NCBI RefSeq assembly: GCF_024623065.1
Contig: NZ_JANJZR010000025.1
Span: 8,028 to 40,027 of the forward strand
Length of the DNA stretch: 32,000 bases
Reading direction: 5' to 3'
Origin: Bacteroides acidifaciens
GTDB taxonomy: Bacteria > Bacteroidota > Bacteroidia > Bacteroidales > Bacteroidaceae
Under the pieces are notes generated by a model. That model had not been told where the DNA came from. It worked only from the letters and a program-made list of their open reading frames with translations, and did no database searches. The translations under genes and the position numbers were made by a program. Each line of letters begins with the position of its first letter. Position 1 is the first letter of the stretch. Below are positions 3,201 to 32,000 of this stretch, in pieces.

Positions 3201-3353
3201 ACTTCCGATTGGATAAAAAAGGCAGGGCTGTCATCGGTGACATTCCGTATTTATACCAACAATATCTTCCGCCTGTCTACCGTCAAGGAAGAACGAGGAC
3301 TCGATTATCCTTTCTCCAGAAGCGTATCCGCTTCTTTGGGCTTACGTTTTTAA
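222..3353 (+). CDS. SusC-like TonB-dependent outer-membrane transporter
   Basis: 1043-aa ORF with a signal-like N-terminus and a carboxypeptidase-regulatory-like segment (YKGIVIDEDDLPLAGVNVTLKG...GHFQI). Plug-like region (ILKDAASAAIYGSKAANGVVVVETK) and a long barrel ending in ...SLGLRF. A SusD-like gene follows 20 nt downstream. No STN signalling domain seen. Confidence 0.9.
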   Translation: MNVDRPVLTRVKCSLFLSLGKRAKYFCLVFILLGSVATNAVYAQQTVTGGKETARSPQRTVYKGIVIDEDDLPLAGVNVTLKGDKSIGVTTNENGHFQIALPEGKNVLVFSYIGMASQEVRVHEGKSVTVRMLPDAQQLGETVVTGIYTRKMDSFTGAASTYKAEELKAIGNQNILQSLSALDPSFVIAENNLAGADPNSMLDISINGKTSINGLSDTYGTDPDRPLFILDGFETTLERISDLSMDRVESITILKDAASAAIYGSKAANGVVVVETKKPEAGRLRFTYNGNYQVSWADLSDYNLMNAAEKLEFEKLSGRYGALDENGEILMDANRALYYSRYRNVVGGLDSYWLSEPLRTAFVHDHSLNAEGGDAAFRYGLTLRYKNAEGVMKNSGRQNIDGTVNLGYRIDRFNFSNQTNIYYTKTDNNVVSFSEFSSANPYYAKYDENGEVYKVLESYQVLGGTEYAYNPLWDFQQKSFNRGDQLTLNNNFNVEFRPFDKMRIVGKFGFTTTRGKTEVFKSPFDSSFTSVEELKRGTFSRSDNNSTSYDGSLLASYGDAIGVHTYNFVGGAQLSENNTTMGAYLTQGYISDNFYNPNFSNSYPDGGKPSSSVAKARSASFYLNGNYAYDMRYLFDFNVRSDGASVFGVNNPFSTTYSLGVAWNIHNEKFFRQSKLVNTLRLRYTFGNPGNQNVDAKLANNVYTYYTKYPNPFGLAAIASKWGNKNLKWKRTQTHNIGLNATLFDRRLAVALDYTLRKSDPELINVEQPTSTGTSFIPMNIGATKNNNVSMTLGYDIIRRRELLWKVTANLLHTTTTYYNIGDLLEKLNQEGRAGQTLIRYYDGASATALWAIRSMGIDPMNGNEVFQKKDGTYTYKWDSAEEVECGDSTPKIQGNLGTTVRYKGFSLGVNFAYRLGGQTVLQTLLNKVENINNVAVRYNQDKRALHDRWQKPGDVAQFKRIDDTSETKISSRFIADENTLQCTSISLGYEDTTSDWIKKAGLSSVTFRIYTNNIFRLSTVKEERGLDYPFSRSVSASLGLRF

Positions 3354-3373
3354 CCGTTTAAATTAAGAGTTTT

Positions 3374-4924
3374 ATGATAACAAAAGATAAAATAAAGGCA
3401 GGAGCGATGGCGCTAATGTTGGTAACGTCTTTCACGTCGTGTGCCGATTGGCTGTCTGTTGATATGGAAGACTCCATCATGGAAAACAAGTTGTATGAAA
3501 CAAACGAAGGTTTTTTGTCTTCTCTGAACGGGGTTTATGCCAAGATGAACGAGAACTACTCGTCGACGCTGACAATGGGCGCTATCGACGTAATGGCACA
3601 GTATTACGATGTGTCGAAAAACAGTACACATACTTATTATGCTTATGCAAATTATCAGCCGGAACAGTTTAAGAGCACTTCCAATGCGCTTTGGACTACG
3701 CAATATGAATTGATTGCCAATTTGAATACTCTCTTGGAGCATTGTGACGAGGCGGGGTCTGCCTTGAATGCCGTTTACTATCCTTACGTGAAAGGGGAGG
3801 CGCTGGCGTTGCGTGCATTCTTACATTTTGACTTGATGCGGGTGTACGGTCCTATTTATAGAGAGAATACGGCAGAGACCGTCACGATTCCTTATGCGGA
3901 AACTTCATCGAAAGAGATACAGCCTTTGTTGTCGGCAAAGACGGTGATGGAAAAGGTGATACGCGACCTGAGTGCCGCTGCGGATTTGTTGAAAGACGAC
4001 AGGATACGTACGGAAGGTGTATTGAACGGTGCTTCCGACAATCCGAATGAAAATACCAACTTGCGCTACCGGCAATATCGGGTGAATTATTTTGCCGTGC
4101 AGGCCTTGCTGGCAAGGGCGTATCTTTGGATAGGCGACAAGGAGAAGGCTTATCAGACGGCGAAGGGATTGATTGCAGAGAGTGAGGAAAAGGAAATATT
4201 CCCGTGGACGAAAAAGGCGGCGGTTACGACAACACTCAATCCCGACCTTCTTTTCTCGTCGGAAGTGATATTTTCGCTTTACAACACTTCGCGTACGAAC
4301 CTGTTTGACCGGATGTTCAACCGGTCGGTAAACCTGAATTCTATTCTCTGCTTTCAGGGTGAGACATTGGAAGAGGGGAATGCCGAATCCAAGCTGACCT
4401 ATTATTTTGATGACATGGGCGACTTGCGGAGAGAATATATGTGGAAAGTGGAAGAGGTGAACCAGAGCGACGAAGAAGGAGGTACGGTAGGTTCGCACAA
4501 GGTGCTCTGTCTGAACAAGTACGAAGGAGTGACCGCAGCCGCGCATCGCTACATGATTCCGCTTGTACGGATGAGTGAGATATATCTGATTGCCGCTGAA
4601 TGTACGGACGACTTGGAAGAAGCCGTGGGTTATGTGAATGCCATTCGGGCAGTTCGCAACTGTGTGAACCTCACACTGACGGAGAGTGATACGAAAGCGA
4701 GCATACAGGAGTATATCACCAATGAGTTCATGCGCGAAGTGATAGGCGAAGGCCAGTTGTTTTTCTATTATAAACGCCACGCCATGCCTTCCATATTGGC
4801 AGGCAACGGTTTTAAGAAAGATTGGAGTGGAAATGCGGTGAAAAGTACCGTAGCAATAGATATGCAGAATTATGTATGGCCGATGCCGGAAGTGGAAATG
4901 GATAAACGCGTAGTATCTGAATAA
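3374..4924 (+). CDS. SusD/RagB-family outer-membrane lipoprotein
   Basis: 516-aa ORF with lipobox (LVTSFTSC). Size and position directly after SusC fit the family. Helical TPR-like N-terminal half and a C-terminal ...EFMREVIGEGQLFFYYKR region typical of SusD homologs. Confidence 0.88.
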   Translation: MITKDKIKAGAMALMLVTSFTSCADWLSVDMEDSIMENKLYETNEGFLSSLNGVYAKMNENYSSTLTMGAIDVMAQYYDVSKNSTHTYYAYANYQPEQFKSTSNALWTTQYELIANLNTLLEHCDEAGSALNAVYYPYVKGEALALRAFLHFDLMRVYGPIYRENTAETVTIPYAETSSKEIQPLLSAKTVMEKVIRDLSAAADLLKDDRIRTEGVLNGASDNPNENTNLRYRQYRVNYFAVQALLARAYLWIGDKEKAYQTAKGLIAESEEKEIFPWTKKAAVTTTLNPDLLFSSEVIFSLYNTSRTNLFDRMFNRSVNLNSILCFQGETLEEGNAESKLTYYFDDMGDLRREYMWKVEEVNQSDEEGGTVGSHKVLCLNKYEGVTAAAHRYMIPLVRMSEIYLIAAECTDDLEEAVGYVNAIRAVRNCVNLTLTESDTKASIQEYITNEFMREVIGEGQLFFYYKRHAMPSILAGNGFKKDWSGNAVKSTVAIDMQNYVWPMPEVEMDKRVVSE

Positions 4925-4939
4925 TAAAAACGAAATCGT

Positions 4940-5854
4940 ATGAAGAAACATATATTAATAGGTTGCACTTTGATGGGAATATTTTCCCTATTGACGAGTT
5001 GTGAGAAAGAACTAATGGGATACGAAGGAAAAGATTGCCTTTATTTTGATGTACGTAGGGGGGCTACCCATATTCTTCCTTCTTTGTGGGGGCATCAGTT
5101 TTATACGGATATCTCTTTCGGAACAATCGTAGAGGATGACGTTGAACTGTCGTTGAAAGTGATGGCTTCGGGCACGCTGAAGGAGTATGACCGTTCTTTC
5201 CGGTTGTCTGTAAACAATGACAGTACGACGGCTATCAGTGGAGTCGACTTCACAGGACTGCAAGATGAGTATATAATTAAGGCAGGAGAGGCAAGCACGG
5301 AAGTGAAGTTTACAGTACATCGCTCTGAACAGATGAACGAGGATACCTTGCAGTTGCAATTGCAGTTGCTTCCCAACGAACATTTCGATTTGAGATATGA
5401 GAATTATGGAGATTATCCCGGTGTCTACAGCCCGACGGACAATGTGGCTTTTTCGGGCAATCATGATGCGTCTATTCATAATTTATTCTTTTATGATGTG
5501 CTCTCCATGCCTCGTGGTGCAGACGGGCTGACCTCTTCGGGCGGATGGTACGGACAGGATAAAGGTGGAACGGGAACCGGGCTTTTCGGTAACTTCTCGG
5601 CAAAGAAATTCCGTCTGATTATGGAACTGACAAATACGACAGTGGCAGACTACGCTGACAAAACGGTAATGCCTATGCCAAGAGCCGAAGCCATCAGTCA
5701 GACTGTAGCTGCGTACTTGCTGGAGATGGCAGAGTCGCGTGAAACAGTAGTGCTAGACGAAGACGGAACAATGATGTTTGTTAGCAATGTGACAACTTTA
5801 GGGGGTAGTAAAGGCTGGGCGCCTTTTACGAAACCGGAAGATTATTTTAAATAA
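4940..5854 (+). CDS. Surface lipoprotein, DUF4843-like (family assigned from memory of similar loci)
   Basis: 304-aa ORF with lipobox (LLTSC), 15 nt after the SusD-like gene. Third position in SusC/SusD/DUF4843/PKD-like type loci. Confidence 0.7.
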   Translation: MKKHILIGCTLMGIFSLLTSCEKELMGYEGKDCLYFDVRRGATHILPSLWGHQFYTDISFGTIVEDDVELSLKVMASGTLKEYDRSFRLSVNNDSTTAISGVDFTGLQDEYIIKAGEASTEVKFTVHRSEQMNEDTLQLQLQLLPNEHFDLRYENYGDYPGVYSPTDNVAFSGNHDASIHNLFFYDVLSMPRGADGLTSSGGWYGQDKGGTGTGLFGNFSAKKFRLIMELTNTTVADYADKTVMPMPRAEAISQTVAAYLLEMAESRETVVLDEDGTMMFVSNVTTLGGSKGWAPFTKPEDYFK

Positions 5855-5863
5855 ACGAAAATT

Positions 5864-7459
5864 ATGATGGCAATGAGAAAAATACAGATACTGTGCGTTG
5901 GGCTTGCAGCTTTGTGGTTGGCTTCATGTACGGACGACAAGGGAAATGATTCGCTTTCTCCGATTAATGAGTTGGAAATAAGCGGTATTGAGGATGAATA
6001 TTATAACGTCGGTTATAAGGAGACATTGGTTATTCCGGTCACATTGAAAGGGTTACTGTCGGGCAGCGACGAGAATCAGTTCGATTATCAGTGGTATCTT
6101 TGCAACAAGGAAGTGACGGAAAATGCGCATAAGCATACAGTGATTAGCACAGAAAAGGATTTGGAGTATCCGTTGGATATTCCTTCCGGAAACTACCGTC
6201 TCTATTTCCGTGCTACGGACAAGGAAACCGGTATGCAATGGGAGAAGGTGACTTCGCTGACTGTGTTGAGTCCTTTTGTCCGCGGTTTCTATTTGTGGGG
6301 AGATAAAGAAGACGGTACGTGTGGTATGGACTTTGTAAGTATGATTGAAGGACGTGACACTACGATGATGGCAGATTTGTTTGATAACACTGTGGGATTG
6401 AAGAAAGCCGGAAACATCGTTTTCACAGGTACGTATGTTGCTACTCCTCATGTAGTCAACTTATGGGCGACGGCGGAAAACGGGGCGTACTCTTTGGAAC
6501 ATTCGTCTTCGTTGGAGAAGTTCGGAGTATTGGAAAATATATCGCTGGACAAAATGGTATTCCCCACTCTTGAGGTGACGCGTCCGTTGAATTTTGTCGA
6601 TATCGTTCCTCATCCTTATGGTTCGAGCAATATGAACCGGGCACGTAGCTGGCGGGTGTTGCTTACCGAAAGAGATGCTTTCTTTTGCGGCTCGCTACTC
6701 TCTTCCGAAGCATACGGCAATCCGATGAACCGATATGATGCGAATACTTCTGTGCTGTACAAGCCTTCTCCTTATGTGTTTTATCAGGACAACTCGACCT
6801 ATTTGCAGGCTGTGGCTTTTTTTGACGAAACCAATCATTGTTTTACGGTTCAGAATGGGGCAAGTTATGCCGTTACCCATACTGTGAAATGCACTGATTC
6901 CGAATCGCCTTTCTGGTTCGACCAAAATAAATACACCCCAGTCCGTGATTTGGTGTATGGCGAAAACGGATTTAACGGGGGATACTCGTATGCGTTGATG
7001 AACGATGCCAACGGCGACTATTACATCTATAAATTCAAAGTAACCAGATATGGAGCAGCAGGAGTTACCAAGTCACTTGCACGTACGGTCGACAAAGCTG
7101 TGGCTACGGATTTTGATAAAGCCGGCCATTATACCTTCTTCTCCGTGCAACCTGTGATTCTTTATGCGGTAGGAGCCGATTTGTGGGCTTACGATTATGT
7201 GCGCAACATCGCCAAGAAAGTGGCTACGATGGATGGAGAAATCACCTATCTGGCTATGGATGCCCATTCCAGCAATACTCCGACCGATTTTATCGTAGCT
7301 ACCTATAGCGAATCTCAAAAAGGTACGGTTTATAAATATACCATTAAAGACGACCCGAACGACATTGTTGTGGAACCGCACACTTACCATACGGAAAGTT
7401 ATCCGTGGAAAACGAATCTGAAAGTAGCGAAGGTAGAATACCGTAATTCAAGTTTATAA
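5864..7459 (+). CDS. PKD-like family surface lipoprotein (putative)
   Basis: 531-aa ORF with lipobox (WLASC), 9 nt after the previous gene. Beta-rich composition. Position and size match the lipoprotein that usually follows DUF4843 genes. Confidence 0.7.
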   Translation: MMAMRKIQILCVGLAALWLASCTDDKGNDSLSPINELEISGIEDEYYNVGYKETLVIPVTLKGLLSGSDENQFDYQWYLCNKEVTENAHKHTVISTEKDLEYPLDIPSGNYRLYFRATDKETGMQWEKVTSLTVLSPFVRGFYLWGDKEDGTCGMDFVSMIEGRDTTMMADLFDNTVGLKKAGNIVFTGTYVATPHVVNLWATAENGAYSLEHSSSLEKFGVLENISLDKMVFPTLEVTRPLNFVDIVPHPYGSSNMNRARSWRVLLTERDAFFCGSLLSSEAYGNPMNRYDANTSVLYKPSPYVFYQDNSTYLQAVAFFDETNHCFTVQNGASYAVTHTVKCTDSESPFWFDQNKYTPVRDLVYGENGFNGGYSYALMNDANGDYYIYKFKVTRYGAAGVTKSLARTVDKAVATDFDKAGHYTFFSVQPVILYAVGADLWAYDYVRNIAKKVATMDGEITYLAMDAHSSNTPTDFIVATYSESQKGTVYKYTIKDDPNDIVVEPHTYHTESYPWKTNLKVAKVEYRNSSL

Positions 7460-7480
7460 ATTTATTAAAAGCAGAATAGA

Positions 7481-8572
7481 ATGAAAAAATTGTTATTGAT
7501 CGCCGTGGCGATAGGCCTGTCTTTCCCGTTGCTGGCACAAACGAATTTCCGTTCGCTCTCTTTTTCGGAAGTGATGGATGCTGCCCGCCAAGAGAAGAAG
7601 CTAGTGTTTATTGATTTTTATACAGACTGGTGTGGTCCTTGCAAGAAGATGGCACGCGAGACATTCCCGCAGAAGAATGTCGGCAACTTTATGAATCAGA
7701 ACTTCGTCTGTCTTAAGTTGAATGCCGAAAAAGAGGGCAAGGAGCTGGCAGCCCGTTATGCAGTGAAGGCTTATCCCACCTTTATCATCCTCGATTCGGA
7801 CGGAAAAGTTCGTTCGGAACTGAAAGGTGCGATGGACGGCGATGCATTTATAGCGAAGCTGAAGGCGGGACTGGACCCCGAACAGACGCCAGAGCGTATG
7901 GCAGAGCGTTATCAGGCAGGCGAACGTACGCCGGAACTGGTGAATAACTACGCATTGCACATGATGGAGCAGCGAAAAGAGAAGGAGGGCTTTGAGATAG
8001 TGAACAATTATTTCGAATCCTTGTCCGAAGCCGAACGCCTCAAGGCGGTGAATGCCTTCCTCTTCACTCGCTATACGCTCAACATAGACGATGCAAAGGC
8101 ACGTTTTATGGTGGCACATCGCGATGAGTTTGATGCGACGGTGAAGGAAGAGATTGCAGAAAGAGTAGCTCGGTTGTATCGTGCGAAGTTAATCATGTAT
8201 TTCTCCGGCTACCAGCTTCGTTCCAATCTTTATAAAGAAGAAGAGTATCAGACGTTGAAAAACGAGATTTGCAGTCTAGGACTGGACAAGGAGTACAAAT
8301 ACGCCCCGATGTTCCGCTTGATCGAAGGAAGGCTGATTTGCGATGATGAGGCCTATGTGGATATGTGCGTGAAAGAATATGACGGATTGGAAGAGGCCGA
8401 CCGCAGTTTGCTGATAATGAATCTGACACGCCTGATTCAGACGGACGATGTGGCTATTTTGAAGCGGATGTCCGAATTCATACGCAATCATTTGCGCGAA
8501 ATGGTGCCGAGTTGCATATCCGTTGCCAGTCGTGCGTTGGAGGATATCGAGTCGCGGATGAATAAGAAATAA
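7481..8572 (+). CDS. Secreted thioredoxin-fold protein with a long helical C-terminal extension
   Basis: 363-aa ORF with a cleavable signal (…SFPLLAQ) and the thioredoxin active-site context FIDFYTDWCGPCKKM. About 230 aa of C-terminal region has unknown function. Confidence 0.8.
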   Translation: MKKLLLIAVAIGLSFPLLAQTNFRSLSFSEVMDAARQEKKLVFIDFYTDWCGPCKKMARETFPQKNVGNFMNQNFVCLKLNAEKEGKELAARYAVKAYPTFIILDSDGKVRSELKGAMDGDAFIAKLKAGLDPEQTPERMAERYQAGERTPELVNNYALHMMEQRKEKEGFEIVNNYFESLSEAERLKAVNAFLFTRYTLNIDDAKARFMVAHRDEFDATVKEEIAERVARLYRAKLIMYFSGYQLRSNLYKEEEYQTLKNEICSLGLDKEYKYAPMFRLIEGRLICDDEAYVDMCVKEYDGLEEADRSLLIMNLTRLIQTDDVAILKRMSEFIRNHLREMVPSCISVASRALEDIESRMNKK

Positions 8573-22469: not shown

Positions 22470-23643
22470 TTAGTCTATAGGCAAGCTGTTAACAAAATAT
22501 TGTTCGCCATCTCTCAAGAAAAATACCTCTTCCTCTTTTCCCCGGGTTTCATTATGAAGGAAAAGTAGTGCGTTCCGGGGAACATCTTTGTATTGTAAAT
22601 TATTGCTGTCCGGTAAAACTTTGACATGATAGGAAATGGACTATTTTTATCTCATACAGCATGAAACAGACTCGTATAGATGTCTTTTAAGGGCTTTTTG
22701 ATGCTTAATGCTACCAATTTCACATCGCCTCAAATGACAAGCCCTTTTTCGTAAAACAGGTGTAACTTATTATATTTGTAGAGAATATATGATTTTGTCG
22801 TTTTTTACCGGACAGCAATAATTGTAAATAAACACCTTTTGCCTTTTGTTTACCTAACGAAATCCACTTTTTATCTTTTCCCCAATAAAAGAGTTCATAG
22901 GTATCTCCCGGACGGATAAAATTGTCGTCGTTGCGTGGAATACATAAAATCTTATTAATTAAAACTTCTGAACCAAAGTCAAAAATAAGTTCCTGTCCTT
23001 CTTTCTTAGACAGAAAATAGGTGAGCGGGGCATAATCGAAGCAATTCGCTAGTTTAAATTCATCGTCATTAGCATTATATGGTTCGCATGCGACTATATT
23101 TACAGGTTTCACTTCTTGTCGGTCTTGATAAAAGTGTAGTTCTGCTAATTCGAGAAAAGCATTTTCCCTGACTTTGTATCGTACATAGCGGTATTTTTGT
23201 TTATTCTGCACCATCAATTCATTATAGCAAACTTTAGACGTATCACATATATGGTATAGCATTTCAGGATGGCTGAAATCAATCGTATTACTTTCCTCAA
23301 ACTTAGAATCTACAATTTTGTACATTCTATCCTTATTCCATGCAAAGAACGGGAACTTTCGGTAAATCTTAATATCTTCCGATTTGCTTCCTTTATTATC
23401 TGTTGAAAAATAATTGAACTGTTTCCCATCAAATATAAATGGATCGGTGAAAGGGATGTATTTTTTCCCCACTTTTGATAAAATGATATAGATGCAATTA
23501 TCTTCTACATAGCCGAATGACACATTATTTCCATTAAATGACAAAGGTTGATCGCCTTCGTCTATTATACGAACTGAAATTTGTGCTAATACCGATAATG
23601 TTGATAATACATTGATCATGAATTAACTGAAAAATATCTTCAT
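22470..23643 (-). pseudogene. Discoidin (F5/8 type C)-like secreted protein gene, inactivated
   Basis: The track ORF 22720-23619 is paralogous to 31202->32000 (shared motifs LELAELHF, CFD..PLTYFLSK, IFDFG, PRNDDNFIRPGD.YELFY). Its true C-terminal coding part (VPRNALLFLHNETRGKEEEVFFLRDGEQYFVNSLPID*) lies at 22470-22592, separated by a 222-bp insertion. Upstream, ATG 23643 gives MKIFFS, then an in-frame TAA (23623-23625), then FMINVLSTLSVLAQ, which is an interrupted signal peptide. Confidence 0.8.
22600..22821. mobile_element. 222-bp non-autonomous MITE-like insertion
   Basis: Perfect 19-bp terminal inverted repeats: TTATTGCTGTCCGGTAAAA (22600-22618) and its reverse complement (22803-22821). 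It is flanked by the 7-bp direct repeat TTGTAAA (22593-22599 and 22822-22828). There is no internal ORF. Removing the element and one repeat copy restores the frame ...GVYLQYKDVPRNALL..., which aligns with the paralog. Confidence 0.85.
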
Positions 23644-23953: not shown

Positions 23954-25951
23954 TTAGTATTCAAACTCTACCCCGTACCATTTATAAAATTTCGTCTTAT
24001 AAACCATATCAAGCAATAGTTGGTTTGTTATTTCTGGCTCTTTAATGACATCGGTTGAAAATATGTCTTTTTTTAAAGCTCCAAATTTTAATAACCGATA
24101 TTTCTTTTCTTCTCCCAGCAAACGCCAGGATGTTGTTAGACTTGGCAAAGCTTCTACCGCTTTTCTTAAAGCCTTTGTTGCTGATGCATAATCTCCAAAC
24201 CAATGCATTATATATCCATATCGTGCCAAATCTGATGGACTTTGTAAGTGTTGAGTAGAATATCTGTAGATTTCTTTTTTTAACTCATGATAAAATGCTG
24301 AATCATTATTTTTCCATTCCTTAACTTGCTGCATTGTTAATAAACGAGGATTATTAAAAATTGCTTTTACAAGAGGATTAATAGATTTCTTTAATAACCC
24401 TTTTTGGTAACATACATTTCCAAATGCCCAAGAGTAAAGAGAATTATTGGGATAATCGTATGCTAGGTTTTCTAAAAGGCAATATCCTTGATCCATTTTA
24501 TCTGTTTGCAAATACAACTGAGACAATAAATAAGTGAGTTGAACATCTCTCGGGCTATATTTTTGAGCTTTTTTCAAAAAAGATATTGCTTTCTCTGCAT
24601 AAATATCCTGTTTTATCTCTTGGTAGTTTTTAGCACATTCCATTCCCTGATTCACTAAATAAGGAATTCTATTTCCTGGAATATTATATCGTTGCGAGTC
24701 GAGGTTGACGAATAAGATTCCACCTCCATAAACGGTTAATAACAACCCTGGTATTAAGTATGATTTTCTATCTTTTGCCGGCTCACAAATTTCTGGTTCG
24801 GGCGCTTGTCTTTGTAGAAAAGCTAACAATATAAAAAACATAAGCCATACAAAAGGAATGTCGAACATTGTTGATTGTGCCATTTCTTTGGTCGACAATG
24901 CGATTAAAGTAGCAATGATTATCCAAGTATTTTCGTCTTTTCTACGGCTTAATGCAATTCCGATTATCTCTACTAGCAACAGTAGATAAGGTATTATTCC
25001 AATGATGCCCTTTTCAATTAGTAATTTGATAATAATGTTTGGTGCAAAAGTTGTAAAAGGAACAGTACTGTCTTGATTTAGTGATTCATCTATAACAAGG
25101 GTATAGCTTCCGTTTCCATATCCGAGAATGGGATGCTTCTCAAAAATCTCCCAAGCGGCATAAGTCGAATTTATTCTCCATTCGCTACTCCGTTGTTGTG
25201 AAACAGTGGCATTCATGCGCAGGGTAGTTTTCATTTCGGTAGGGAAAAGTATAGCGATTATAGCAATGGCTGCAAAAACGGCGAGCAGCGGTTTCCAGTG
25301 CTTGGCACTTTTAGTTGCAGCGATCCATATCACCAAGTAAATGCCTAGTGCAACATAAGCCCCTCTGGAGAAAGAGAGCAAAATCGTTACTATTGTTAGA
25401 AATATGAATATACTGGAATAGCGGCGTATAAAACAAATCCACCCTAAAAGTACTAATAGTATTTCTGCCCATACATTGGTTACATATCCTAATGGGCGGA
25501 ATAAAAAACGAAAATGATAGGTGTCTGTGAAGCCTGCCTCTAATACGGAATTGCGGAATATAATAAACGAACAGACAGTCAGTATCAGAGCTGCCCCAAT
25601 AGGTAAATAACTTCCTACCTGAAATAGATTCAGAGATTTGCCGGTAGCCAAAAGCTTCCTCACAATCAAATAAACGGTGAATCCATAGAATGAAAATATC
25701 ATGTTGTATACAGCTGGTACAGCACAACTGGCATAAAAGCATAATACTAAATCATAGGCTACTATGATACTCAACGTCCAGTCTATAAATGTCCATTGTT
25801 GGATAGGAAGCGGGCGGACAAATGCTAGAGCTACAATTGACAATAGCATTCCAATCCGGTAATGGTCTTTGAATTGGAATATCTCTATTGTCAACACTGC
25901 CAGTAGCAATATTGTAGCCACATAAAAACTGGTATTAAGCTTGTTCTCCAT
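23954..25951 (-). CDS. Polytopic Wzy_C (O-antigen ligase/polymerase-like) membrane protein with C-terminal TPR-like domain
   Basis: 665-aa ORF. About 400 aa form multi-TM helices, including the LSFSRGAYVALGIYLV segment typical of the O-antigen-ligase family. A soluble helical-repeat tail follows (…AISFLKKAQKYSPRDVQLTYLLSQLYLQTDKMDQG…ALRKAVEALP). Overlaps the upstream gene by 17 nt. Confidence 0.75.
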   Translation of the reverse strand: MENKLNTSFYVATILLLAVLTIEIFQFKDHYRIGMLLSIVALAFVRPLPIQQWTFIDWTLSIIVAYDLVLCFYASCAVPAVYNMIFSFYGFTVYLIVRKLLATGKSLNLFQVGSYLPIGAALILTVCSFIIFRNSVLEAGFTDTYHFRFLFRPLGYVTNVWAEILLVLLGWICFIRRYSSIFIFLTIVTILLSFSRGAYVALGIYLVIWIAATKSAKHWKPLLAVFAAIAIIAILFPTEMKTTLRMNATVSQQRSSEWRINSTYAAWEIFEKHPILGYGNGSYTLVIDESLNQDSTVPFTTFAPNIIIKLLIEKGIIGIIPYLLLLVEIIGIALSRRKDENTWIIIATLIALSTKEMAQSTMFDIPFVWLMFFILLAFLQRQAPEPEICEPAKDRKSYLIPGLLLTVYGGGILFVNLDSQRYNIPGNRIPYLVNQGMECAKNYQEIKQDIYAEKAISFLKKAQKYSPRDVQLTYLLSQLYLQTDKMDQGYCLLENLAYDYPNNSLYSWAFGNVCYQKGLLKKSINPLVKAIFNNPRLLTMQQVKEWKNNDSAFYHELKKEIYRYSTQHLQSPSDLARYGYIMHWFGDYASATKALRKAVEALPSLTTSWRLLGEEKKYRLLKFGALKKDIFSTDVIKEPEITNQLLLDMVYKTKFYKWYGVEFEY

Positions 25952-27137
25952 TCTTGCTATTCTGTTTTTTCAGACTACGAATCATTTTCGTAAATAGGTA
26001 TCCCAATAGTGCGAGGAACAACAGTTGTATTCCGATGTTGCGCATTAAAGCAAAAGGAGGTGTTAGGTTATTAGACAAATAGAGAATGAGTTCCTGCATC
26101 TCTCTTGGAAATGAAAGCAGAAAATTATATAGGAAACGTGGAATAATGTATATGAAATAGTATCCCATGAAGAAATTCACTATCACCGCGTATATCGCCA
26201 GTCCCCATCTCTCCGCGAGACCTATCCGCAATAAATAGGGCATTTGTTGGATGCGGCGTCTCATAATTCGATACCAGTAATATTTGATTATTTCAATAGA
26301 ACGTTTACGTAAACTTGGCACTCCTAGGAGGTCAGATACAATCCAGTAACCATCGAATTTAAAGAATGGATTGAGAGTCATCAAAAAGCCTAAATTGAGA
26401 ATTAATATCATATATCGCAGCATATCGTCACCGGTCATCCAGAAACCGACCAGTAAAACTATAAGAAAGAAACATTGGAAATAGACCCCTGCGATATTTA
26501 CCATAAATCGTTGCTTTCTATTTAATTTCCATATTTCCGTTACATCTGTATATAGGACGGGAAAATTTAAGTAGATCCCAAAACCGATACTTCCGTGTTT
26601 TACCCCACAATATTTACAAGCTGAGGCATGTCCTAATTCGTGAAAGAATGAAGATACTAACATAAATATCAGCAGTCCTGCCATACCAAAAGCATTTGCT
26701 CTGTTATTGAAAACTAATAAGTCGGGAACATTGATAAAAAAGAATATGTCCATAATTGTTGCTATAGATAGCAAGCTCCACATAAATTTCCTATTGAATA
26801 GAAAAGAAAATCTTTTTGAAAAACGCTCAACAGTGGCGGCTGTTAGAAGTTCCTTTTCGTAAAGGAATGTACATTCTTTCTCTTTGGGAATTGTAAGAAG
26901 AGGGTCAATATGCTTTTTAATGAGACTTTCTGTCTGTTCAAAGGTATATTTTCCCTCTTTCTTATTAATATAAGTTTGTATAGCTGCTTCTTGAGTCTCA
27001 TTCTGTTGTAGGTCAGTTAATAATTCTGCTAAGGGCTGGTTAACCTCAAAATATCTCCCGTTGCAAGAAAGTAGATAATGCTCCTTTTCTGTGGAAGAAG
27101 AGAACGGAGAAATGCTGATAGTGTTGTATTTATTCAT
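25935..27137 (-). CDS. M50/site-2-protease-like intramembrane zinc metalloprotease with N-terminal PqqD/RRE-like domain
   Basis: 400-aa ORF. HELGH lies in a TM segment (26628-26642) and a second S2P-like motif LNPFFKFDGYW follows. The N-terminal ~85 aa (EKEHYLLSCNGRYFEVNQPLAELLTDLQQNETQEAAIQTYINKKEGKYTFEQTESLIKKHIDPLL) are soluble and resemble PqqD-like peptide-binding domains. Starts 3 nt after the OM barrel gene. Confidence 0.75.
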   Translation of the reverse strand: MNKYNTISISPFSSSTEKEHYLLSCNGRYFEVNQPLAELLTDLQQNETQEAAIQTYINKKEGKYTFEQTESLIKKHIDPLLTIPKEKECTFLYEKELLTAATVERFSKRFSFLFNRKFMWSLLSIATIMDIFFFINVPDLLVFNNRANAFGMAGLLIFMLVSSFFHELGHASACKYCGVKHGSIGFGIYLNFPVLYTDVTEIWKLNRKQRFMVNIAGVYFQCFFLIVLLVGFWMTGDDMLRYMILILNLGFLMTLNPFFKFDGYWIVSDLLGVPSLRKRSIEIIKYYWYRIMRRRIQQMPYLLRIGLAERWGLAIYAVIVNFFMGYYFIYIIPRFLYNFLLSFPREMQELILYLSNNLTPPFALMRNIGIQLLFLALLGYLFTKMIRSLKKQNSKNGEQA

Positions 27138-27140
27138 CTT

Positions 27141-29438
27141 TTAATAAGCTTTTAGGATGGCACTGTTAATATGTCTGTTCGTGTTATTGTCGTCTCGTGC
27201 GGTTTTCTTTCCGAAATTATGTGTATAAATCACTTTTAGAAAGCCTGTCTGTTGATATATGCGCCCTGTCACATAATTTGTGTAATTGTAAGCATCTAAT
27301 GTCACTGATTGTTTCCACTGGCGGTGTTTGGTAAAAGGGCTTTCCGCTCCTGCTTCCACCAACCAGTTTCCACAACTCCAGCGTGCCGTTAATCCGTATT
27401 TAGCCGGTTCATATTTATGGATCAAATCTGCACTAAAACTTTTCGAACTTGTTTTGCCATAAAGACTACATGATAAATCTTTCCAGTAATAGTCCATTTG
27501 AATCAATCCGGAAAGACTGCTCGATTTGTCGGAAATCCCTTTAAAGAGAGAAGTAATTGACCAATATCCGTCCATTTTTAAACGAAAATTTTCCGACACT
27601 TTCCATGTGGCGGATAGCATGCCTTCATGATGATGGGCACTTACATCACTACGAAAGGTGTTTATGAGTCTACCGTCTTTAATAAAAAACTCATCAGTAT
27701 TAACATGTTCAACTCTTTCGTAATGAAGTGCCGCATATAGATTGAGGTTTTTAAACTGGCCGCTATAGTTGAAATTGACATCTCCAAAAATAGTATTATC
27801 CAAGTTAGGATTTCCTCTTTTAATGATTAATGAATCAATTTCTTGTACAGCATTACTTAATTGGGAAATTTGAGGTTGTGTGTTGCCTAAAACTCCATTG
27901 AAAACGATTTGATGTAGGCTGGAGATTCGATAAGTTAAATTTGTTTTCAAGCGTGGTGAGATTTGGCTAATACGCTTCTCGTTATGTAAGCGATATTGCA
28001 GTGACGATAATCCGGGGGATACACTGAATGTTAGATTCTTTTTAAACATTCGATTGTATTCTGCATAAAACAAGGTTTGGCCTGTCCATAAATGCTGCCA
28101 AGATGAATTGTTTCCATCATAATGGGAAGAACTAATGGTATGATAGTGCCCTATTCGGAGAGATAAAGCATTGCGTTCTTTCCATCGTATTCCATACTTT
28201 ATATCTGCTCGAACTGTATAGATATCTTCTTTTGTATGAGTTAAAGTGGTATATTTATCTTCCAGGTAATTGTAAGAATAAGAATTATTAGCATAGGTAC
28301 CTGCCAATGACGACTCAATATACTGATTGTTTTTCAAGTTAAAATATCCATATAAATCTATAGTAGGCATATTGCCGGACTGATTAGTTGTTTTGCTCGA
28401 CTCTTTATTCATTGTGTGTCCGCCGCCATACTCAAGTAATTCCCGGCTAAAGTTGTCTGGTGCATCATTACGCACGAATGATATTTTCGCCAATAAATTA
28501 CGTTTTTTATTCTGGTTAGCTATGTTTAACTGTACATATTGGTTGTCGCTCTTAACCTTATTATCCAGTGTATTAGTTTTTCTATCTATAGCATATTTAG
28601 GAAAGATAAAATATTCGTGATTATCATTTATATCCCCCTTGTATTTGTTCATGCTATATCCCGCAAAAAGCGTATAATTCATGTTGCCATGTGACAGTTT
28701 GCTCACTATGTTATAGTCTCCATTGAGGTATCCCATAGCTTGCCGTCCATCAATTGCCACGTATCCCCCTGACTTGTACTGACGGGTAACATAGTTGATT
28801 GCAGCAACATCGTCGGCGTACCTCCCTGATGGTGTGTCGAAATACTCTACTTTCTCTATATCTCGTGGTCTTAAACTCTGCACTTCTCGATAATCAGCTT
28901 TCCTCCCATCAATATATAAAGTGGCTTCCCCACCAAATGTTTTTACTTTTCCCTTTATCCTGTCCACTTCCATTCCAGGAATCATCAAATTATATAATAA
29001 ATCATACCCTGTACCTGCTTGTTTTACCTGTTGCTTGTCAGGCAAAATGAGTAGCCTATCCTTTTGCCGGATAACAGAAGCTCCTTTTACCACCACTTCG
29101 TTCAACTCTATGTTATCTGTTTCCATTATCACTGGTGGTAGTTCGTTTTTCTTCTCTGTTGTATTGGCGTTAACTATTTGCTTTTTATATCCTATTGAGG
29201 AAAAAACTATAAAATAAGGTGAAGGGGAAACCTTTGTAAATTGATAATAGCCTAATGTGTCAGTGGTTGTACCAGTCACAAAGCTTGAATCGACACGGAA
29301 TAGTTGTACTGAAACATATGATAATGATTGGCCTTCCAAATCTGTTACTTTACCAGCAATGCTGCATTGGGCATAAAGAATTTGTGGAAATAGAAAAATG
29401 GTCAATAAATAAACAAAAAAAACGACGGTATATTTCAT
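27141..29438 (-). CDS. Outer-membrane beta-barrel family protein (TonB-dependent-receptor-like; CarboxypepD_reg domain + OMP_b-brl_3-like barrel)
   Basis: The track start at 29447 is a TTG; I prefer the ATG at 29438 (MKYTVVFFVYLLTIFLFPQILYAQ signal). N-terminal CSIAGKVTDLEGQSLSYVSVQL...GYYQF is carboxypeptidase-regulatory-like. A plug-like segment and a long beta-rich region ending in ...AILKAY follow. Confidence 0.75.
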   Translation of the reverse strand: MKYTVVFFVYLLTIFLFPQILYAQCSIAGKVTDLEGQSLSYVSVQLFRVDSSFVTGTTTDTLGYYQFTKVSPSPYFIVFSSIGYKKQIVNANTTEKKNELPPVIMETDNIELNEVVVKGASVIRQKDRLLILPDKQQVKQAGTGYDLLYNLMIPGMEVDRIKGKVKTFGGEATLYIDGRKADYREVQSLRPRDIEKVEYFDTPSGRYADDVAAINYVTRQYKSGGYVAIDGRQAMGYLNGDYNIVSKLSHGNMNYTLFAGYSMNKYKGDINDNHEYFIFPKYAIDRKTNTLDNKVKSDNQYVQLNIANQNKKRNLLAKISFVRNDAPDNFSRELLEYGGGHTMNKESSKTTNQSGNMPTIDLYGYFNLKNNQYIESSLAGTYANNSYSYNYLEDKYTTLTHTKEDIYTVRADIKYGIRWKERNALSLRIGHYHTISSSHYDGNNSSWQHLWTGQTLFYAEYNRMFKKNLTFSVSPGLSSLQYRLHNEKRISQISPRLKTNLTYRISSLHQIVFNGVLGNTQPQISQLSNAVQEIDSLIIKRGNPNLDNTIFGDVNFNYSGQFKNLNLYAALHYERVEHVNTDEFFIKDGRLINTFRSDVSAHHHEGMLSATWKVSENFRLKMDGYWSITSLFKGISDKSSSLSGLIQMDYYWKDLSCSLYGKTSSKSFSADLIHKYEPAKYGLTARWSCGNWLVEAGAESPFTKHRQWKQSVTLDAYNYTNYVTGRIYQQTGFLKVIYTHNFGKKTARDDNNTNRHINSAILKAY

Positions 29439-29478
29439 ATATCTCAATTTATTGTATCATAGGAATCAAATTAACTGT

Positions 29479-29551
29479 AAAATAGAGAATTCTCCATTGA
29501 GGAGCATTCTCTATCGTCTTGGATGAATGTATCTTTTTAAGATATATTCAT
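29479..29551 (-). terminator. Two hairpins directly downstream of the peptide gene (candidate partial terminator/attenuator)
   Basis: Hairpin A is 29523-29534 / 29540-29551 (12-bp stem, 1 mismatch). Hairpin B is 29483-29513 (TAGAGAAT-T-CTCC ... GGAG-C-ATTCTCTA), followed on the - strand by TTTT (29479-29482). Confidence 0.5.
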
Positions 29552-29561
29552 TTCCAATAGC

Positions 29562-29777
29562 CTAGCCCCAATTGGTGGATTCGGAATCACATTTCCAACA
29601 AAGGAGGTCAACATCTCCTGACGAAGCATCCATTGTTGTGACCAAGTCTAATAATCCATTAGCTAATAATGGATCAGTTTCCAAACGTTTTTCCAGTTCA
29701 TGAACGAACATCTCGTCGCACAGTTCTTCGTTAACAGGCTGAATGCCAGCCACTGCATTTTTCTTTAATTCTTTCAT
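29562..29777 (-). CDS. 71-aa acidic peptide, candidate RiPP precursor
   Basis: The ATG overlaps the rSAM stop codon (ATGA at 29774-29777). The sequence has a leader-like N-terminus (MKELKKNAVAGIQPVNEEL...HELEKRLETDPLL) and a Cys/Trp-containing C-terminus, LLCWKCDSESTNWG. Confidence 0.65.
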   Translation of the reverse strand: MKELKKNAVAGIQPVNEELCDEMFVHELEKRLETDPLLANGLLDLVTTMDASSGDVDLLCWKCDSESTNWG

Positions 29778-31174
29778 TTGATTTTTGAATTAGTGGTTAA
29801 TAATAGTGATTGTTTATATGTTGAATATGCTCTGTTTACAGACAGAGGATATACAGATTTAAATTTGAAACAAGCAGATGCCTTAAAACCATCTTTTGTA
29901 TGAACAGAACGAGCTAAACATCCTCCTCCACATAATAGTGCATATTTACAAGATTGACAATTAAGAGCATTTCCGGTATTTCTTTCAAACCAATGCTTAC
30001 GTACTTCTGTCCATTCAGGTTCTTCGTTTGTGTAATGCCCAATAACTTGGTCTGGTTTTCCGACTGTTTCAAGGCATGTAAATATATCTCCTACGGGATC
30101 TAGAAGATAGCTTCCATATTGAGCAGAACAACTAGCAGAATATAAACGGCAACGAGAACCATTTTCTAAATATGATAGATAATGTCTATAAATGCCAAAG
30201 TCTTGATAATATATTTCTCCATTGTATGTCTTTTGATGTTGCTTATTAAATGTATCCATTGATAAATAATTGATATCAACATCGCAGTTATCATTCTCAT
30301 TATATTTTCTTAATATGGAAGAGTATGTTTTGAAATGAGGATTTGATGTGAATCCTAGTTTTTTAAATAATTCATTTAGCGATTTGAAATCTTGAAAATT
30401 GTTACTATCTGTATTAACTCTTACCGATACATCAATATTTTTTCTTAATAAGATACCAATGTTATTAACTATTTTATCAAAACTGGCTCCTTCTTCATAA
30501 TGAAATCTACGAGAATTATGATTTTCTTTATCCCCATCAAGTGTAATTTGAAAGAAACTAAAATATTCCGGAGATAAGATGTTCTCAAAATAGTCAATGT
30601 CATATCCATTGCTGATTACTTTGAATGTATATCCTAATTGATGACCTTTCAGAACAATATATTCTATTACTTCTTTGTTTTGGCGCAAGAAAGGTTCACC
30701 CCCATAAAGAAGTATATTTTTATAATGTAATTCTTTTCTAGGCTCAATTTTCATCATGGTTTTATAGGCTTTATCTACCATCTCTTTTGTAAATGTCCAT
30801 TTAGACCATTGATTCCCATGATTAGATATTCCATTCTCAAAGCAATAAGAACATCTGAAGTTACAGTCATAGCTAATAATGAATCCAAATGTTTTGTACA
30901 ATTTACTTTGAGTTTTATGTAGAAGTTGTGCTAATTTCTTTACATACTCAATTTCCTCTTCTTGAGTATGTGTTGTTAGATATCCTCTTTTCTGTAAATA
31001 TGCTATAGTTTGTTCTGGTAATGAACTTGTTTTGGAAAAATCTTCTATTTCCTTCCAAATGTCTTTATCTAAAATATCAATAGCACCAGTATAGCCATGA
31101 GTTAACAGATATTTATCATCTTCAATTTCTAACTTGACTGGAATTGTGTAATATGATAATCTCAGCTTTTCCAT
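29774..31174 (-). CDS. Radical SAM / SPASM-domain peptide-modifying enzyme
   Basis: 466-aa ORF. CX3CX2C motif CNFRCSYC (30842-30865) and GGEPF. SPASM signature GDIFTC followed by CQSCKYALLCGGGC (CX2CX5CX3C, 29918-29959). An N-terminal extension of about 95 aa precedes the rSAM core, as in RRE-containing maturases. Confidence 0.88.
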   Translation of the reverse strand: MEKLRLSYYTIPVKLEIEDDKYLLTHGYTGAIDILDKDIWKEIEDFSKTSSLPEQTIAYLQKRGYLTTHTQEEEIEYVKKLAQLLHKTQSKLYKTFGFIISYDCNFRCSYCFENGISNHGNQWSKWTFTKEMVDKAYKTMMKIEPRKELHYKNILLYGGEPFLRQNKEVIEYIVLKGHQLGYTFKVISNGYDIDYFENILSPEYFSFFQITLDGDKENHNSRRFHYEEGASFDKIVNNIGILLRKNIDVSVRVNTDSNNFQDFKSLNELFKKLGFTSNPHFKTYSSILRKYNENDNCDVDINYLSMDTFNKQHQKTYNGEIYYQDFGIYRHYLSYLENGSRCRLYSASCSAQYGSYLLDPVGDIFTCLETVGKPDQVIGHYTNEEPEWTEVRKHWFERNTGNALNCQSCKYALLCGGGCLARSVHTKDGFKASACFKFKSVYPLSVNRAYSTYKQSLLLTTNSKIK

Positions 31175-31201
31175 TTTTTTTTATTCTAATAAGTTTTACA
31201 T

Positions 31202-32000
31202 TTAAATATTACAGATATACATCTGTTTATGGTTAGAAAAAAAGAATACTTGTTCTTCTTTGCCTCGTGTCCAGTCTCTTAGCATCAAAAGAGCATTATC
31301 AGGTACTTTGCATTCTATCGTATTTTTATTCGCTACTTTTCTTAATAAAGAAATCCATCCTTTTCTTTTATCAAAATAGAATAACTCATATTCATCTCCT
31401 ATGCGGATAAAGTTATCGTCATTTCGCGGTACGCAGATCGCATATGTGATATTAACCTCTTTGCCGAAATCGAAAATTATTGAATCGCCTTTGTTCTTTG
31501 ATAAAAAGTATGTAAGTGGATCATTATCAAAGCAATTTTTCAATTGCATTTCTGGGTCTTTGTTATTATATGATTCTCCTGAAATAATGTTTTGTGGTAT
31601 TAATTCTTCCCGATCATTAAAAAAATGTAACTCTGCTAATTCAAGTAAAACATCATTTCGAGCTATATATTTAAGATACCTGTTCTTTTGGTATAAGGTA
31701 TCCATAGGATATGTATTAAAGCATACATAAGGCGTGTCACATACTTCATATAATTTCTTGTTAATCCTATTCCGATGATTTCCTCCATAGAATTGTGCTT
31801 TAATAATTCGATACATTCGTTCCTGATTCCATCTAAAAAGAGGAAATTTGCGGTAAAGTGTTTCAGTCTTTATTTTGCTTAAATCTGCTTTAAGATAATG
31901 GAGTTGGCCATCAATGAAAACAAAAGGTTCAGACTCTAATTCTAACTTTTCGGATATTCCAGATAGTAGTAGATAAATGTTACGATCCTCAACTGCTCCA
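31202..32000 (-). CDS. Discoidin (F5/8 type C)-like protein, 5'-truncated by the window edge
   Basis: The track ORF begins at the Met at 31816, but the frame stays open to position 32000. The upstream translation (…AVEDRNIYLLLSGISEKLELESEPFVFIDGQLHYLKADLSKIKTETLYRKFPLFRWNQER-MYRII…) aligns with the paralog at 22470-23643. The gene ends 27 nt upstream of the rSAM gene. Confidence 0.8.
   Translation of the reverse strand, partial: GAVEDRNIYLLLSGISEKLELESEPFVFIDGQLHYLKADLSKIKTETLYRKFPLFRWNQERMYRIIKAQFYGGNHRNRINKKLYEVCDTPYVCFNTYPMDTLYQKNRYLKYIARNDVLLELAELHFFNDREELIPQNIISGESYNNKDPEMQLKNCFDNDPLTYFLSKNKGDSIIFDFGKEVNITYAICVPRNDDNFIRIGDEYELFYFDKRKGWISLLRKVANKNTIECKVPDNALLMLRDWTRGKEEQVFFFSNHKQMYICNI

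Follow-up and report, generated by a model that had tools for sequence, protein, structure and literature searches.

A candidate radical SAM peptide pathway with an M50 protease and an unusual set of envelope proteins in Bacteroides acidifaciens and its relatives

Do six closely packed genes in an AT-rich island of Bacteroides acidifaciens encode a peptide-modification pathway, and if so, of which kind? The genes are located on the minus strand of a 32,000-nucleotide stretch of contig NZ_JANJZR010000025.1, which is called the window below, and include those for a radical S-adenosylmethionine (SAM) enzyme with a SPASM domain, a 71-residue peptide and an M50-type protease. A first-pass annotation, made from the sequence alone, had proposed a candidate new Bacteroidales modified-peptide system, and the conserved gene order, the conserved leader and the Cys-rich cores found in 85 loci support this proposal. 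We estimate at roughly 70% the probability that the locus specifies a RiPP pathway (RiPP, a peptide synthesised by ribosomes and modified after translation), in which a leader-guided peptide is modified by the radical SAM enzyme and processed by the M50 protease. The features of the locus, with the basis of each assignment and the one-letter names used in the text, are:

31202..32000, minus strand: U, the C-terminal 266 codons of its gene (stop at 31202, frame open to base 32000)
29774..31174, minus strand: R, radical SAM/SPASM maturase of 466 residues (Pfam and NCBIfam profiles)
29562..29777, minus strand: p, precursor peptide gene, 71 residues (homologous small reading frames directly 3' of R)
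29481..29557, minus strand: two stem-loops 3' of the precursor gene (folding compared with shuffles)
27141..29447 (alternative start 29438), minus strand: O, outer-membrane barrel protein of 765-768 residues (CarboxypepD_reg)
25935..27137, minus strand: M, intramembrane zinc metalloprotease of the M50 type, 400 residues (invariant motifs and fold)
23954..25951, minus strand: W, Wzy_C/TPR membrane protein of 665 residues (Pfam profiles)
22720..23619, minus strand: truncated paralog of U, 299 residues (BLASTP)

The six genes from U to W were confirmed by a listing of open reading frames (ORFs) and by direct reading, and the order, spacers and overlaps of the first-pass annotation were all reproduced. 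The stop codon of U is separated from R by 27 nt, the stop codon of R overlaps the start of the precursor gene as ATGA, which couples the two genes translationally, 114-123 nt separate the precursor gene from O and 3 nt separate O from M, whereas the genes of M and W overlap by 17 nt. We regard the pathway as real and widespread, and infer its chemistry and the functions of its accessory proteins; we are much less sure about what U, W and O do.

The precursor family and its radical SAM enzyme

An alignment of R homologs retrieved 212 relatives from species-representative genomes, and 80 loci were kept. All ORFs of 85 loci, many of which are cut by contig ends, were searched with iterated hidden Markov models, one for each window protein. 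M is encoded in 77 of the 85 loci, the precursor in 74 (next to R, in 1-6 copies per locus), O in 55, U in 47 and W in 45; a tetratricopeptide repeat (TPR) protein encoded on the same strand 5' of U, designated T, is present in 32. The gene order is fixed as [T]-U-R-p(x1-6)-[O]-M-W-[U], and the peptide, barrel, M50 and Wzy_C genes co-occur with the homologs of R in this order.

The core trio of R, precursor and M is conserved from Bacteroidales to Ignavibacteria, Balneolaceae, Saprospiraceae and Elizabethkingia, and U, W and O are additions to it in Bacteroidales. The carriers include Bacteroides, Phocaeicola, Segatella/Prevotella (among them Segatella copri), Parabacteroides, Paraprevotella, Alistipes, Rikenellaceae, Muribaculaceae, Odoribacter, Butyricimonas, Dysgonomonas and the periodontal pathogen Tannerella forsythia. 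Outside the Bacteroidales, only R-p-M is kept (Elizabethkingia, Saprospiraceae, Balneolaceae, Ignavibacteria and Ferruginibacter), and the loci of Latescibacterota contain R and M, with no precursor detected. The family comprises 593 clusters of R (90% identity, E <= 1e-10) and 1283 clusters of the M50 protease, in addition to the 212 species-level genome matches. Single variants occur in hundreds of metagenome assemblies, and metagenome contigs, examined through precomputed annotations, exhibit the same architecture and also tandemly duplicated systems.

The precursor from the window can be divided into the leader MKELKKNAVAGIQPVNEELCDEMFVHELEKRLE, the segment TDPLLANGLLDL, a linker and a core (...DVDLLCWKCDSESTNWG). 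The 95 distinct homologs align through the leader SLNxxLxxEFxxxELExRLE, and L, E, R and E of its ELExRLE motif are 99-100% conserved. The leader of Bacteroidales precursors is extended by TDPLxxGGLxDL, and the subsequent linker is acidic and Ser/Thr-rich (D, T, S); the RLE motif and the core are separated by a median of 18 residues. In pairwise comparisons, the leaders are on average 44% identical, the TDPL segments 52% and the cores 9-16%. Cysteine constitutes 17% of the residues of the hypervariable cores and is the only residue type that is universally enriched; at least two Cys are present in 91 of 92 precursor tails (median 4, maximum 11), and the Cys-Cys gaps peak at 1, 3 and 5 residues. 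The cores also contain W, Y and F, with Y threefold enriched at position +3 from Cys. Because the leader is strongly conserved and the core is hypervariable and Cys-rich, the precursor is of the RiPP type, and none of the precursors tested is matched by a Pfam or NCBIfam model.

The leader of the window precursor contains a Cys at codon 20 (29718-29720; EELCDEMF), where the family consensus is Tyr or Phe, and its nearest homolog, P0361, has a Cys at the same place (DALCDEMF). A search with the 71-residue peptide against the whole representative library matched 34 representatives only. P0363 and P0380 were discarded as spurious low-complexity matches to long repeat proteins; P0363 (664 residues, Bacteroidota-like, secreted) contains about nine tandem repeats of about 35 residues with YTETDPVYSNS, and was drawn in by the ETDP segment of the leader. 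Rikenella has up to six divergent precursor genes in tandem, and tandem duplication of whole systems was also observed (multi-copy precursors or systems at L017 11452-13075, L038 11502-13149 and L088 1-13975). The Prevotella-type loci L041, L042, L049, L050, L052 and L053 encode a 1094-residue CarboxypepD_reg outer-membrane protein 5' of R and 1-4 tandem precursors of 52-56 residues each (some ORF calls are longer), with the leader end ERIE-TAPV and a near-identical FCSPICDFTCLVY core.

The two hairpins noticed previously between the peptide and barrel genes both fold. They are located at 29557-29519 and 29515-29481, and the second is followed by the U-run UUUUAC. The minimum free energy of the region is -31.1 kcal/mol (z = -3.69), and none of 200 shuffled sequences folds equally well. 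A simple terminator scan of the window does not list the pair (29557-29481). The hairpins are a candidate attenuator or partial terminator, which would yield more precursor transcript relative to enzyme transcript.

The translation of R contains all of the radical SAM and SPASM motifs that had been read from the sequence (CNFRCSYC, GGEPF, GDIFTC and CQSCKYALLCGGGC), and R is 100% identical to a protein of B. acidifaciens. The enzyme starts with an N-terminal extension of about 95 residues, and a Pfam search with this isolated domain gave no PqqD match. The CX3CX2C motif at residues 104-111 (C104, C108 and C111) and the seven Cys of the SPASM domain (C349, C367, C406, C409, C415, C419 and C435) are invariant in 22 homologs. 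Both expected profiles score above their cutoffs, Radical_SAM (PF04055) with 45 bits (cutoff 29.5; 1.5e-11) and SPASM (TIGR04085) with 48.6 bits (cutoff 27; 8e-13), and Fer4_12 is also matched in Pfam. The best family models are CefB (127 bits), TIGR04463 (111), PapB (107), FlmE/OhkG (101) and SCIFF (81), together with CcpM, all of which describe maturases of Cys-rich peptides. R scores far below the cutoffs of these families (SCIFF TIGR03974, 425; PapB NF047865, 340; CefB NF038107, 600; TIGR04463, 525), and was not assigned to SCIFF, PapB, CefB, TIGR04463 or StsB. The closest solved structure is that of the thioether-forming enzyme CteB (5e-24).

Anaerobic sulfatase-maturating enzymes (anSME) are also among the matches of R (PDB, 3e-17), and Wzy_C proteins usually belong to glycan pathways. 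Taken together, these two points could mean that there is no peptide pathway, and that R is an anSME-like or cofactor-related protein maturase next to an unrelated surface-polysaccharide cassette of W, O and U. However, the anSME model (TIGR03942) gives 64 bits against a cutoff of 349, and on the first-pass question of clade membership the scores speak for the Cys-rich-peptide and thioether maturases, to which R is nearer (CefB, 127 bits). The island contains no sulfatase, glycosyltransferase or Wzx gene, and a small ORF with a conserved leader is kept beside R in 74 of 85 loci, in several phyla and in fixed order. We rejected both the anSME and the polysaccharide-cassette assignment on these grounds, and consider it very improbable that no modified peptide is made.

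The chemistry of R might differ from thioether formation. The enzyme could form C-C or C-O cyclophanes, epimerise residues or modify side chains in other ways, and the Cys of the core would then form disulfides in the periplasm or bind metal. The scores for named families are all so far below the cutoffs that function is not transferable from them, and the cyclophane formers YhhB and FxsB, the dynobactin enzyme DynA and further classes are among the matches. Such chemistry would also be compatible with the W, Y and F of the cores and the enrichment of Y after Cys, and the product would cross the periplasm, which is the site of disulfide formation. We nevertheless regard chemistry other than thioether formation as unlikely, because the top six models include the thioether formers PapB and SCIFF besides other maturases of Cys-rich peptides, CteB is the closest enzyme of solved structure, and Cys alone is universally enriched, with at least two in nearly every precursor.

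The membrane protease and the envelope proteins

The M50-like protease named in the first-pass annotation has the motifs expected of it, H166-E167-x-x-H170 and N256-P257...D262-G263 (NPFxxFDG), which are invariant in 34 homologs, although its Peptidase_M50 score of 24.2 bits is just under the Pfam cutoff of 27.2. M is nearest to the RiPP proteases of daptide (MpaP-type) and YydH/LiaK systems, with both models below cutoff: daptide_HExxH (NF041824) gives 87.4 bits (cutoff 300; 1e-24) and YydH/LiaK (NF058609) 58.5 bits (cutoff 225; 8e-16). M50 proteases are established in RiPP pathways (EpeP and TglG), and a dual role in cleavage and export has been proposed for EpeP (PMC10885120).

The structure of M, predicted by AlphaFold2 (AF2) with an overall predicted local distance difference test (pLDDT) score of 69, consists of a membrane part, for which SpoIVFB is the top Foldseek match, and a cytoplasmic N-terminal domain (residues ~8-77). 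The N-terminal domain has a predicted beta3-alpha3 fold with a pLDDT of 71-89. It mostly matches RiPP proteins that contain a RiPP recognition element (RRE), namely TbiB1 with bound leader, ThcOx, McbBCD, TruD/LynD and CteB; the match to TbiB1 has a target-normalised TM-score of 0.56 and an rmsd of 3.1 Å over 78 columns, and the E-values are 0.4-2. A search with the isolated domain against PqqD (PF05402) gave no sequence match, so that the recognition element previously placed on the protease stands as RRE-like by predicted fold and is undetected by sequence. It is likely that an RRE is fused to the M50 protease.

The gene of U is cut by the window end. The complete gene, at L001 8057-9973, encodes a protein of 638 residues with a lipobox Cys18, an N-terminal helical domain, a transglutaminase/papain-like core, a beta-sandwich and a C-terminal domain similar to carbohydrate-binding modules (CBMs) and discoidin. 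In 27 homologs derived from the loci, Cys18, C226 and H259 are all invariant; in a second set this holds again for C226 and H259, and nearly so for Cys18. D247 and D266 are nearly invariant. The AF2 model has a pLDDT of 91 and a predicted TM-score (pTM) of 0.86. Its core matches transglutaminases and the putative cysteine protease 3isr with a Foldseek probability of 1.0, and matches of the C-terminus are 2yb7, whose deposited name is 'carbohydrate binding family 6' (1e-28), and CBM32/discoidin domains. Transglut_core (PF01841) is detected in 19 and F5/8 type C in 16 of the 27 family members, while the copy in the window matches PF01841 with E = 0.08 only. The name 'discoidin-like gene' given previously holds for the C-terminus and is incomplete because the window truncates U, a transglutaminase-like lipoprotein. 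Lasso-peptide leader proteases are transglutaminase-like (PMC10885120).

The 299-residue ORF at the other end of the cluster aligns to residues 369-636 of U with 45% identity (BLASTP, 4e-71), and has neither a lipoprotein signal nor the transglutaminase-like core. Full-length second copies of U follow W in, for example, L022, L026, L030, L033, L043, L047 and L060. The ORF is probably a decaying remnant of the second U copy found 3' of W in many sister clusters.

W is polytopic and has a C-terminal TPR domain of about 230 residues. It matches Wzy_C (PF04932) with 67 bits (1.5e-18), as had been anticipated, and also TPR_19, while no PglL_A or Wzy_C_2 domain was detected in it. Where W is present, it is always encoded 3' of M. 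A PDB search with the N-terminal 440 residues as a single sequence gave no match, whereas the family profile matched the oligosaccharyltransferase 9rmk (2e-11) and WaaL (7tpg, 9e-6). The invariant R196 and R259 of W are aligned with conserved Arg of both relatives; in WaaL/OTase enzymes the aligned Arg residues bind the polyprenyl-pyrophosphate group. W also has the GxGxG loop of these relatives. The His of the (A/S)HN motif, which is the catalytic residue in WaaL and PglL, is conserved in both solved relatives and present in 0 of 30 W homologs, 23 of which have Pro instead. The 'O-antigen-ligase-like' description from the first pass is therefore borne out by the Wzy_C domain and the two Arg, but not by the catalytic His.

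O consists of a signal peptide, a CarboxypepD_reg domain (1.6e-12), a plug-like segment, recognised by eye only, and a large beta-barrel. Its family profile matches the N-terminal domains of SusC/TonB-dependent receptors, and 9gbc, a 'TonB-linked outer membrane receptor', over positions 5-636 (1e-8). OMP_b-brl_3 (PF14905), one of the models proposed for a check, is found in 8 of 28 collected family members, most of which occupy the same position in sister clusters, and Plug in 2 of 28; the barrel in the window has no PF14905 match even at E <= 10 and no Plug match. O thus resembles a TonB-dependent receptor. The idea that the barrel takes the place of an exporter is not borne out, and an outer-membrane protein cannot replace inner-membrane export.

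Could W attach something to the peptide? W might attach a polyprenyl-linked glycan or lipid to the peptide, or join the peptide to a surface glycan, while U with its CBM-like domain would recognise or process the conjugate, resulting in a glyco-, lipo- or surface-anchored RiPP. The closest solved relative of W is an O-oligosaccharyltransferase (O-OTase), both aligned Arg are invariant and D, T and S abound in the linker. Genes for dedicated O-OTases often lie beside those of their substrates (PMC12645811), which we count in favour of conjugation. Outside the Bacteroidales, the trio is joined by a CarboxypepD_reg protein of about 278 residues and by an alpha-alpha toroid protein of 650-690 residues of the squalene-hopene-cyclase/prenyltransferase type, which occupies the equivalent place (L032 13107-15904; L080 13208-16041; L081 13341-16326; L083 3199-5268; L078 4515-6470). 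The toroid protein may connect the system to polyprenyl chemistry in a second, unrelated way; one of these proteins has a weak polyprenyl-synthetase match. However, the catalytic His of WaaL/PglL is absent from all 30 W sequences, inspection of the linkers by eye revealed no consistent occurrence of the Bacteroidota O-glycosylation motif D-(S/T)-(A/I/L/V/M/T), no glycosyltransferase gene is present in the island, and many loci that look functional lack W and U. We therefore consider conjugation doubtful.

An extension of the conjugation idea, which we hold with equally low confidence, is that of a Bacteroidales-wide RiPP class in which a Cys-rich peptide, cross-linked by the radical SAM enzyme, is not just secreted but handed to the W/U/O envelope machinery and either conjugated to a polyprenyl-linked glycan or lipid or anchored on the surface or on outer-membrane vesicles; in other phyla, the prenyltransferase-toroid protein would replace W, U and O. 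We know of no described radical SAM peptide that is conjugated to a glycan or lipid or displayed on the surface. If this reading is true, the producers would include abundant gut commensals (Bacteroides, Phocaeicola and Segatella copri) and Tannerella forsythia.

Proposed pathway and its likeness to known systems

For the leader-guided RiPP pathway, we propose that R binds the ELExRLE leader and forms cross-links from the Cys of the core, which are most probably thioethers as in sacti- or ranthipeptides. M would capture the same leader through its cytoplasmic RRE-like domain and cut it off at the inner membrane, and might also let the product out, as has been suggested for EpeP. In Bacteroidales, the TDPLxxGGLxDL segment and the acidic Ser/Thr-rich linker would be dealt with in the periplasm. 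The TDPL segment and W tend to be found together (37/4/1/9; Fisher p = 2e-6, a statistic that ignores phylogeny), which hints at a second, periplasmic recognition step. U, a putative Cys-His enzyme with the fold of lasso-peptide leader proteases, is a candidate second trimming enzyme, and W is a candidate partner that would bind the peptide through its TPR domain and also polyprenyl-phosphate. The TonB-receptor-like O would mediate passage across the outer membrane, be it inward or outward, and the TPR protein T, encoded upstream and outside the window, may regulate the island. The hypervariable cores and the multi-copy precursors point to antagonism or strain-level recognition.

T, of 636 residues, and a 126-residue DUF3244 protein are encoded 5' of U (L001 5453-7877); both genes share its strand and belong to the low-GC block. 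T has a lipoprotein-like signal, TPR_12 repeats in a periplasmic region, one transmembrane (TM) segment, a coiled coil and a C-terminal tail that, judged from its sequence only, is helix-turn-helix (HTH)-like; NCBIfam gives a weak match to the BT3442 family. T may be a membrane-bound regulator of the island. The same biosynthetic core could then produce a self-signalling, autoinducer-like peptide instead of an antagonistic one, which would be sensed in the periplasm by T and taken up again or gated by O. This would be in line with the TPR, single-TM and HTH-like layout of T and its place 5' of U in 32 of 85 loci, with the likeness of the barrel to TonB-dependent importers, and with the stem-loop 3' of the precursor gene, which fits tight expression control. 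Extreme hypervariability of the core and up to six divergent precursors per locus are, however, more typical of antagonism or diversifying selection, no profile confirms the regulator domain of T, and both T and the barrel are missing from many loci. A signalling role thus appears improbable to us.

Several observations weigh against the leader-guided pathway as proposed. The core of the window peptide has the minimal two Cys (LLCWKCDSESTNWG), in a CWKCD context. The cross-link type is a guess from family resemblance, at family scores that are all far below the cutoffs, and the RRE matches of M are weak (Foldseek E-values of 0.4-2, model pLDDT of 69). None of the 30 homologs of W has the His that is catalytic in WaaL/PglL, O resembles importers, and phylogeny confounds the link between TDPL and W, to which L075 is an exception. 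No inner-membrane exporter is encoded in the island, a homologous cluster in Butyricimonas has MacB-type ABC, MFP and OEP genes in place of O, and the Prevotella-type loci described above have no M50 or Wzy_C gene within 10 kb.

The best sequence and structure matches of R are to the thioether-forming ranthi- and sactipeptide systems (CteB/SCIFF and PapB/freyrasin, and Haft's CefB, TIGR04463 and CcpM). These systems have in common with the island a SPASM radical SAM enzyme with the CX3CX2C motif, a seven-Cys auxiliary-cluster domain and an N-terminal extension, and a Cys-rich precursor encoded beside the enzyme, with a conserved leader and a variable core. They differ in their C39/ABC exporter, which is not present here, whereas the leader ELExRLE(TDPL) fits no model, the producers are Gram-negative bacteria of the FCB group, and the accessory set of M with its RRE-like domain, U, W and O is not part of the thioether systems.

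The epipeptide system of B. subtilis (YydFGHIJ/EpeXEPAB) also combines a peptide, a radical SAM enzyme and an intramembrane M50 metalloprotease, and the first-pass annotation had seen in the island a mirror of yydF/yydG/yydH. The comparison is valid only loosely, for the trio, and not for the YydH/LiaK score (58 bits against 225) or for the ABC transporter YydIJ, which has no counterpart here. Furthermore, the protease of the island is fused to an RRE-like domain, and R is nearer to the SPASM maturases of Cys-rich peptides than to any epimerase model. Affiliation with the daptides is not supported either, since M falls short of the equivalog level, and the other daptide enzymes, which include an aminotransferase and a dehydrogenase, are absent from the island.

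The lasso-peptide B proteins (the RRE B1 and the transglutaminase-like C96 protease B2) resemble the island in that a PqqD-like element, putative here, and a Cys-His enzyme of transglutaminase fold occur in one cluster. However, the RRE-like domain of the island is part of a metalloprotease, U is secreted as a lipoprotein and has a CBM-like domain, and instead of a lasso cyclase, which is missing, the cross-linking would be performed by the radical SAM enzyme. W has the Wzy_C domain, two Arg and the GxGxG loop in common with WaaL and PglL/TfpO-type O-OTases, and differs from them in the replacement of the His (mostly by Pro), the C-terminal TPR domain and its position in a peptide-maturation cluster.

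Bacteroidales clusters of the double-glycine (GG)-motif/PCAT type (TIGR04148-04150) share with the island the bacterial order, a radical SAM/SPASM enzyme and a small Cys-containing precursor. Described Bacteroidales radical SAM clusters, BGC1-9 (PMC10352776) and that of Bacteroides sp. 3_1_19 (PMC3132745), have double-glycine leaders and C39-ABC (PCAT) export, and often add a pseudo-radical SAM protein, YcaO or LanC (PMC10352776, PMC3132745), none of which is present here. Neither PMC10352776 nor PMC3132745 mentions an M50, Wzy_C or transglutaminase-like partner. The two Bacteroidales radical SAM clusters that turned up in papers, the YcaO/PCAT cluster BGC8 and a GG/ABC thuricin-like cluster, are different systems.

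Full-text literature searches found no description of this cluster. No equivalog-level model covers R or the protease, and no Pfam or NCBIfam model covers the peptide. The system failed every equivalog-level membership test, in agreement with the earlier remark that three of its features do not fit any named RiPP class. It would work like a sacti- or ranthipeptide pathway that uses a membrane protease of the epipeptide kind; its accessory set is unusual, and the pathway is apparently undescribed.

The modified-peptide chemistry of the Bacteroidales, which dominate among the Gram-negative orders of the gut, has hardly been explored, and published mining has mostly dealt with double-glycine/PCAT clusters. 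Hypervariable and often multi-copy cores suggest strain-level antagonism or recognition, and hence a role in colonisation resistance and community structure. The island is a compact test case for the passage of a Gram-negative RiPP over two membranes without a PCAT, for the role of a site-2-type protease with a fused RRE-like domain and for the capability of a Wzy_C protein that lacks the His.

The surrounding island and additional loci

The AT-rich accessory island was expected to continue beyond the window end, and it does so as a low-GC block that is about 14 kb long on the full contig. GC content is 30-39% from ~22.3 kb to the window end, and 43-52% in most 1-kb windows elsewhere, with two at 40-41%. 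The far side of the island ends at the 299-residue ORF (22720..23619), which is followed by argR. On the other side, before the genes of the TPR and DUF3244 proteins, are rhamnose-utilisation genes (full contigs L001-L003). Neither an integrase nor a tRNA was noticed among the genes called, and the 14 kb of the island contain no ABC transporter gene. A scan for sigma-70 promoters and terminators returned counts equal to the shuffled expectation; Bacteroides promoters are not of the type searched for, so the scan is uninformative.

The rest of the window contains a SusC/SusD-type locus, an MFS transporter, SpoIID, a GT2 protein, an acyl-CoA ligase and arg genes. The SusC-like locus (222-8572, plus strand) encodes, in a row, SusC-like (CarboxypepD_reg and Plug), SusD-like, DUF4843, PKD-like and thioredoxin-domain proteins. 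It is of a type common in Bacteroides outer-membrane loci, with normal GC content and no evident tie to the island.

Two separate loci per genome were found in metagenome-assembled genomes (MAGs) of Odoribacter (L028 and L068) and Phocaeicola (L039 and L046), and in a Latescibacterota genome (L067 and L069). Bacteroidales-type clusters are also present in MAGs labelled Clostridia, Lachnospiraceae or Roseburia (L006, L012, L042, L052 and L058). One of them, L006, is 100% identical to B. acidifaciens, and these loci are probably mis-binned contigs.

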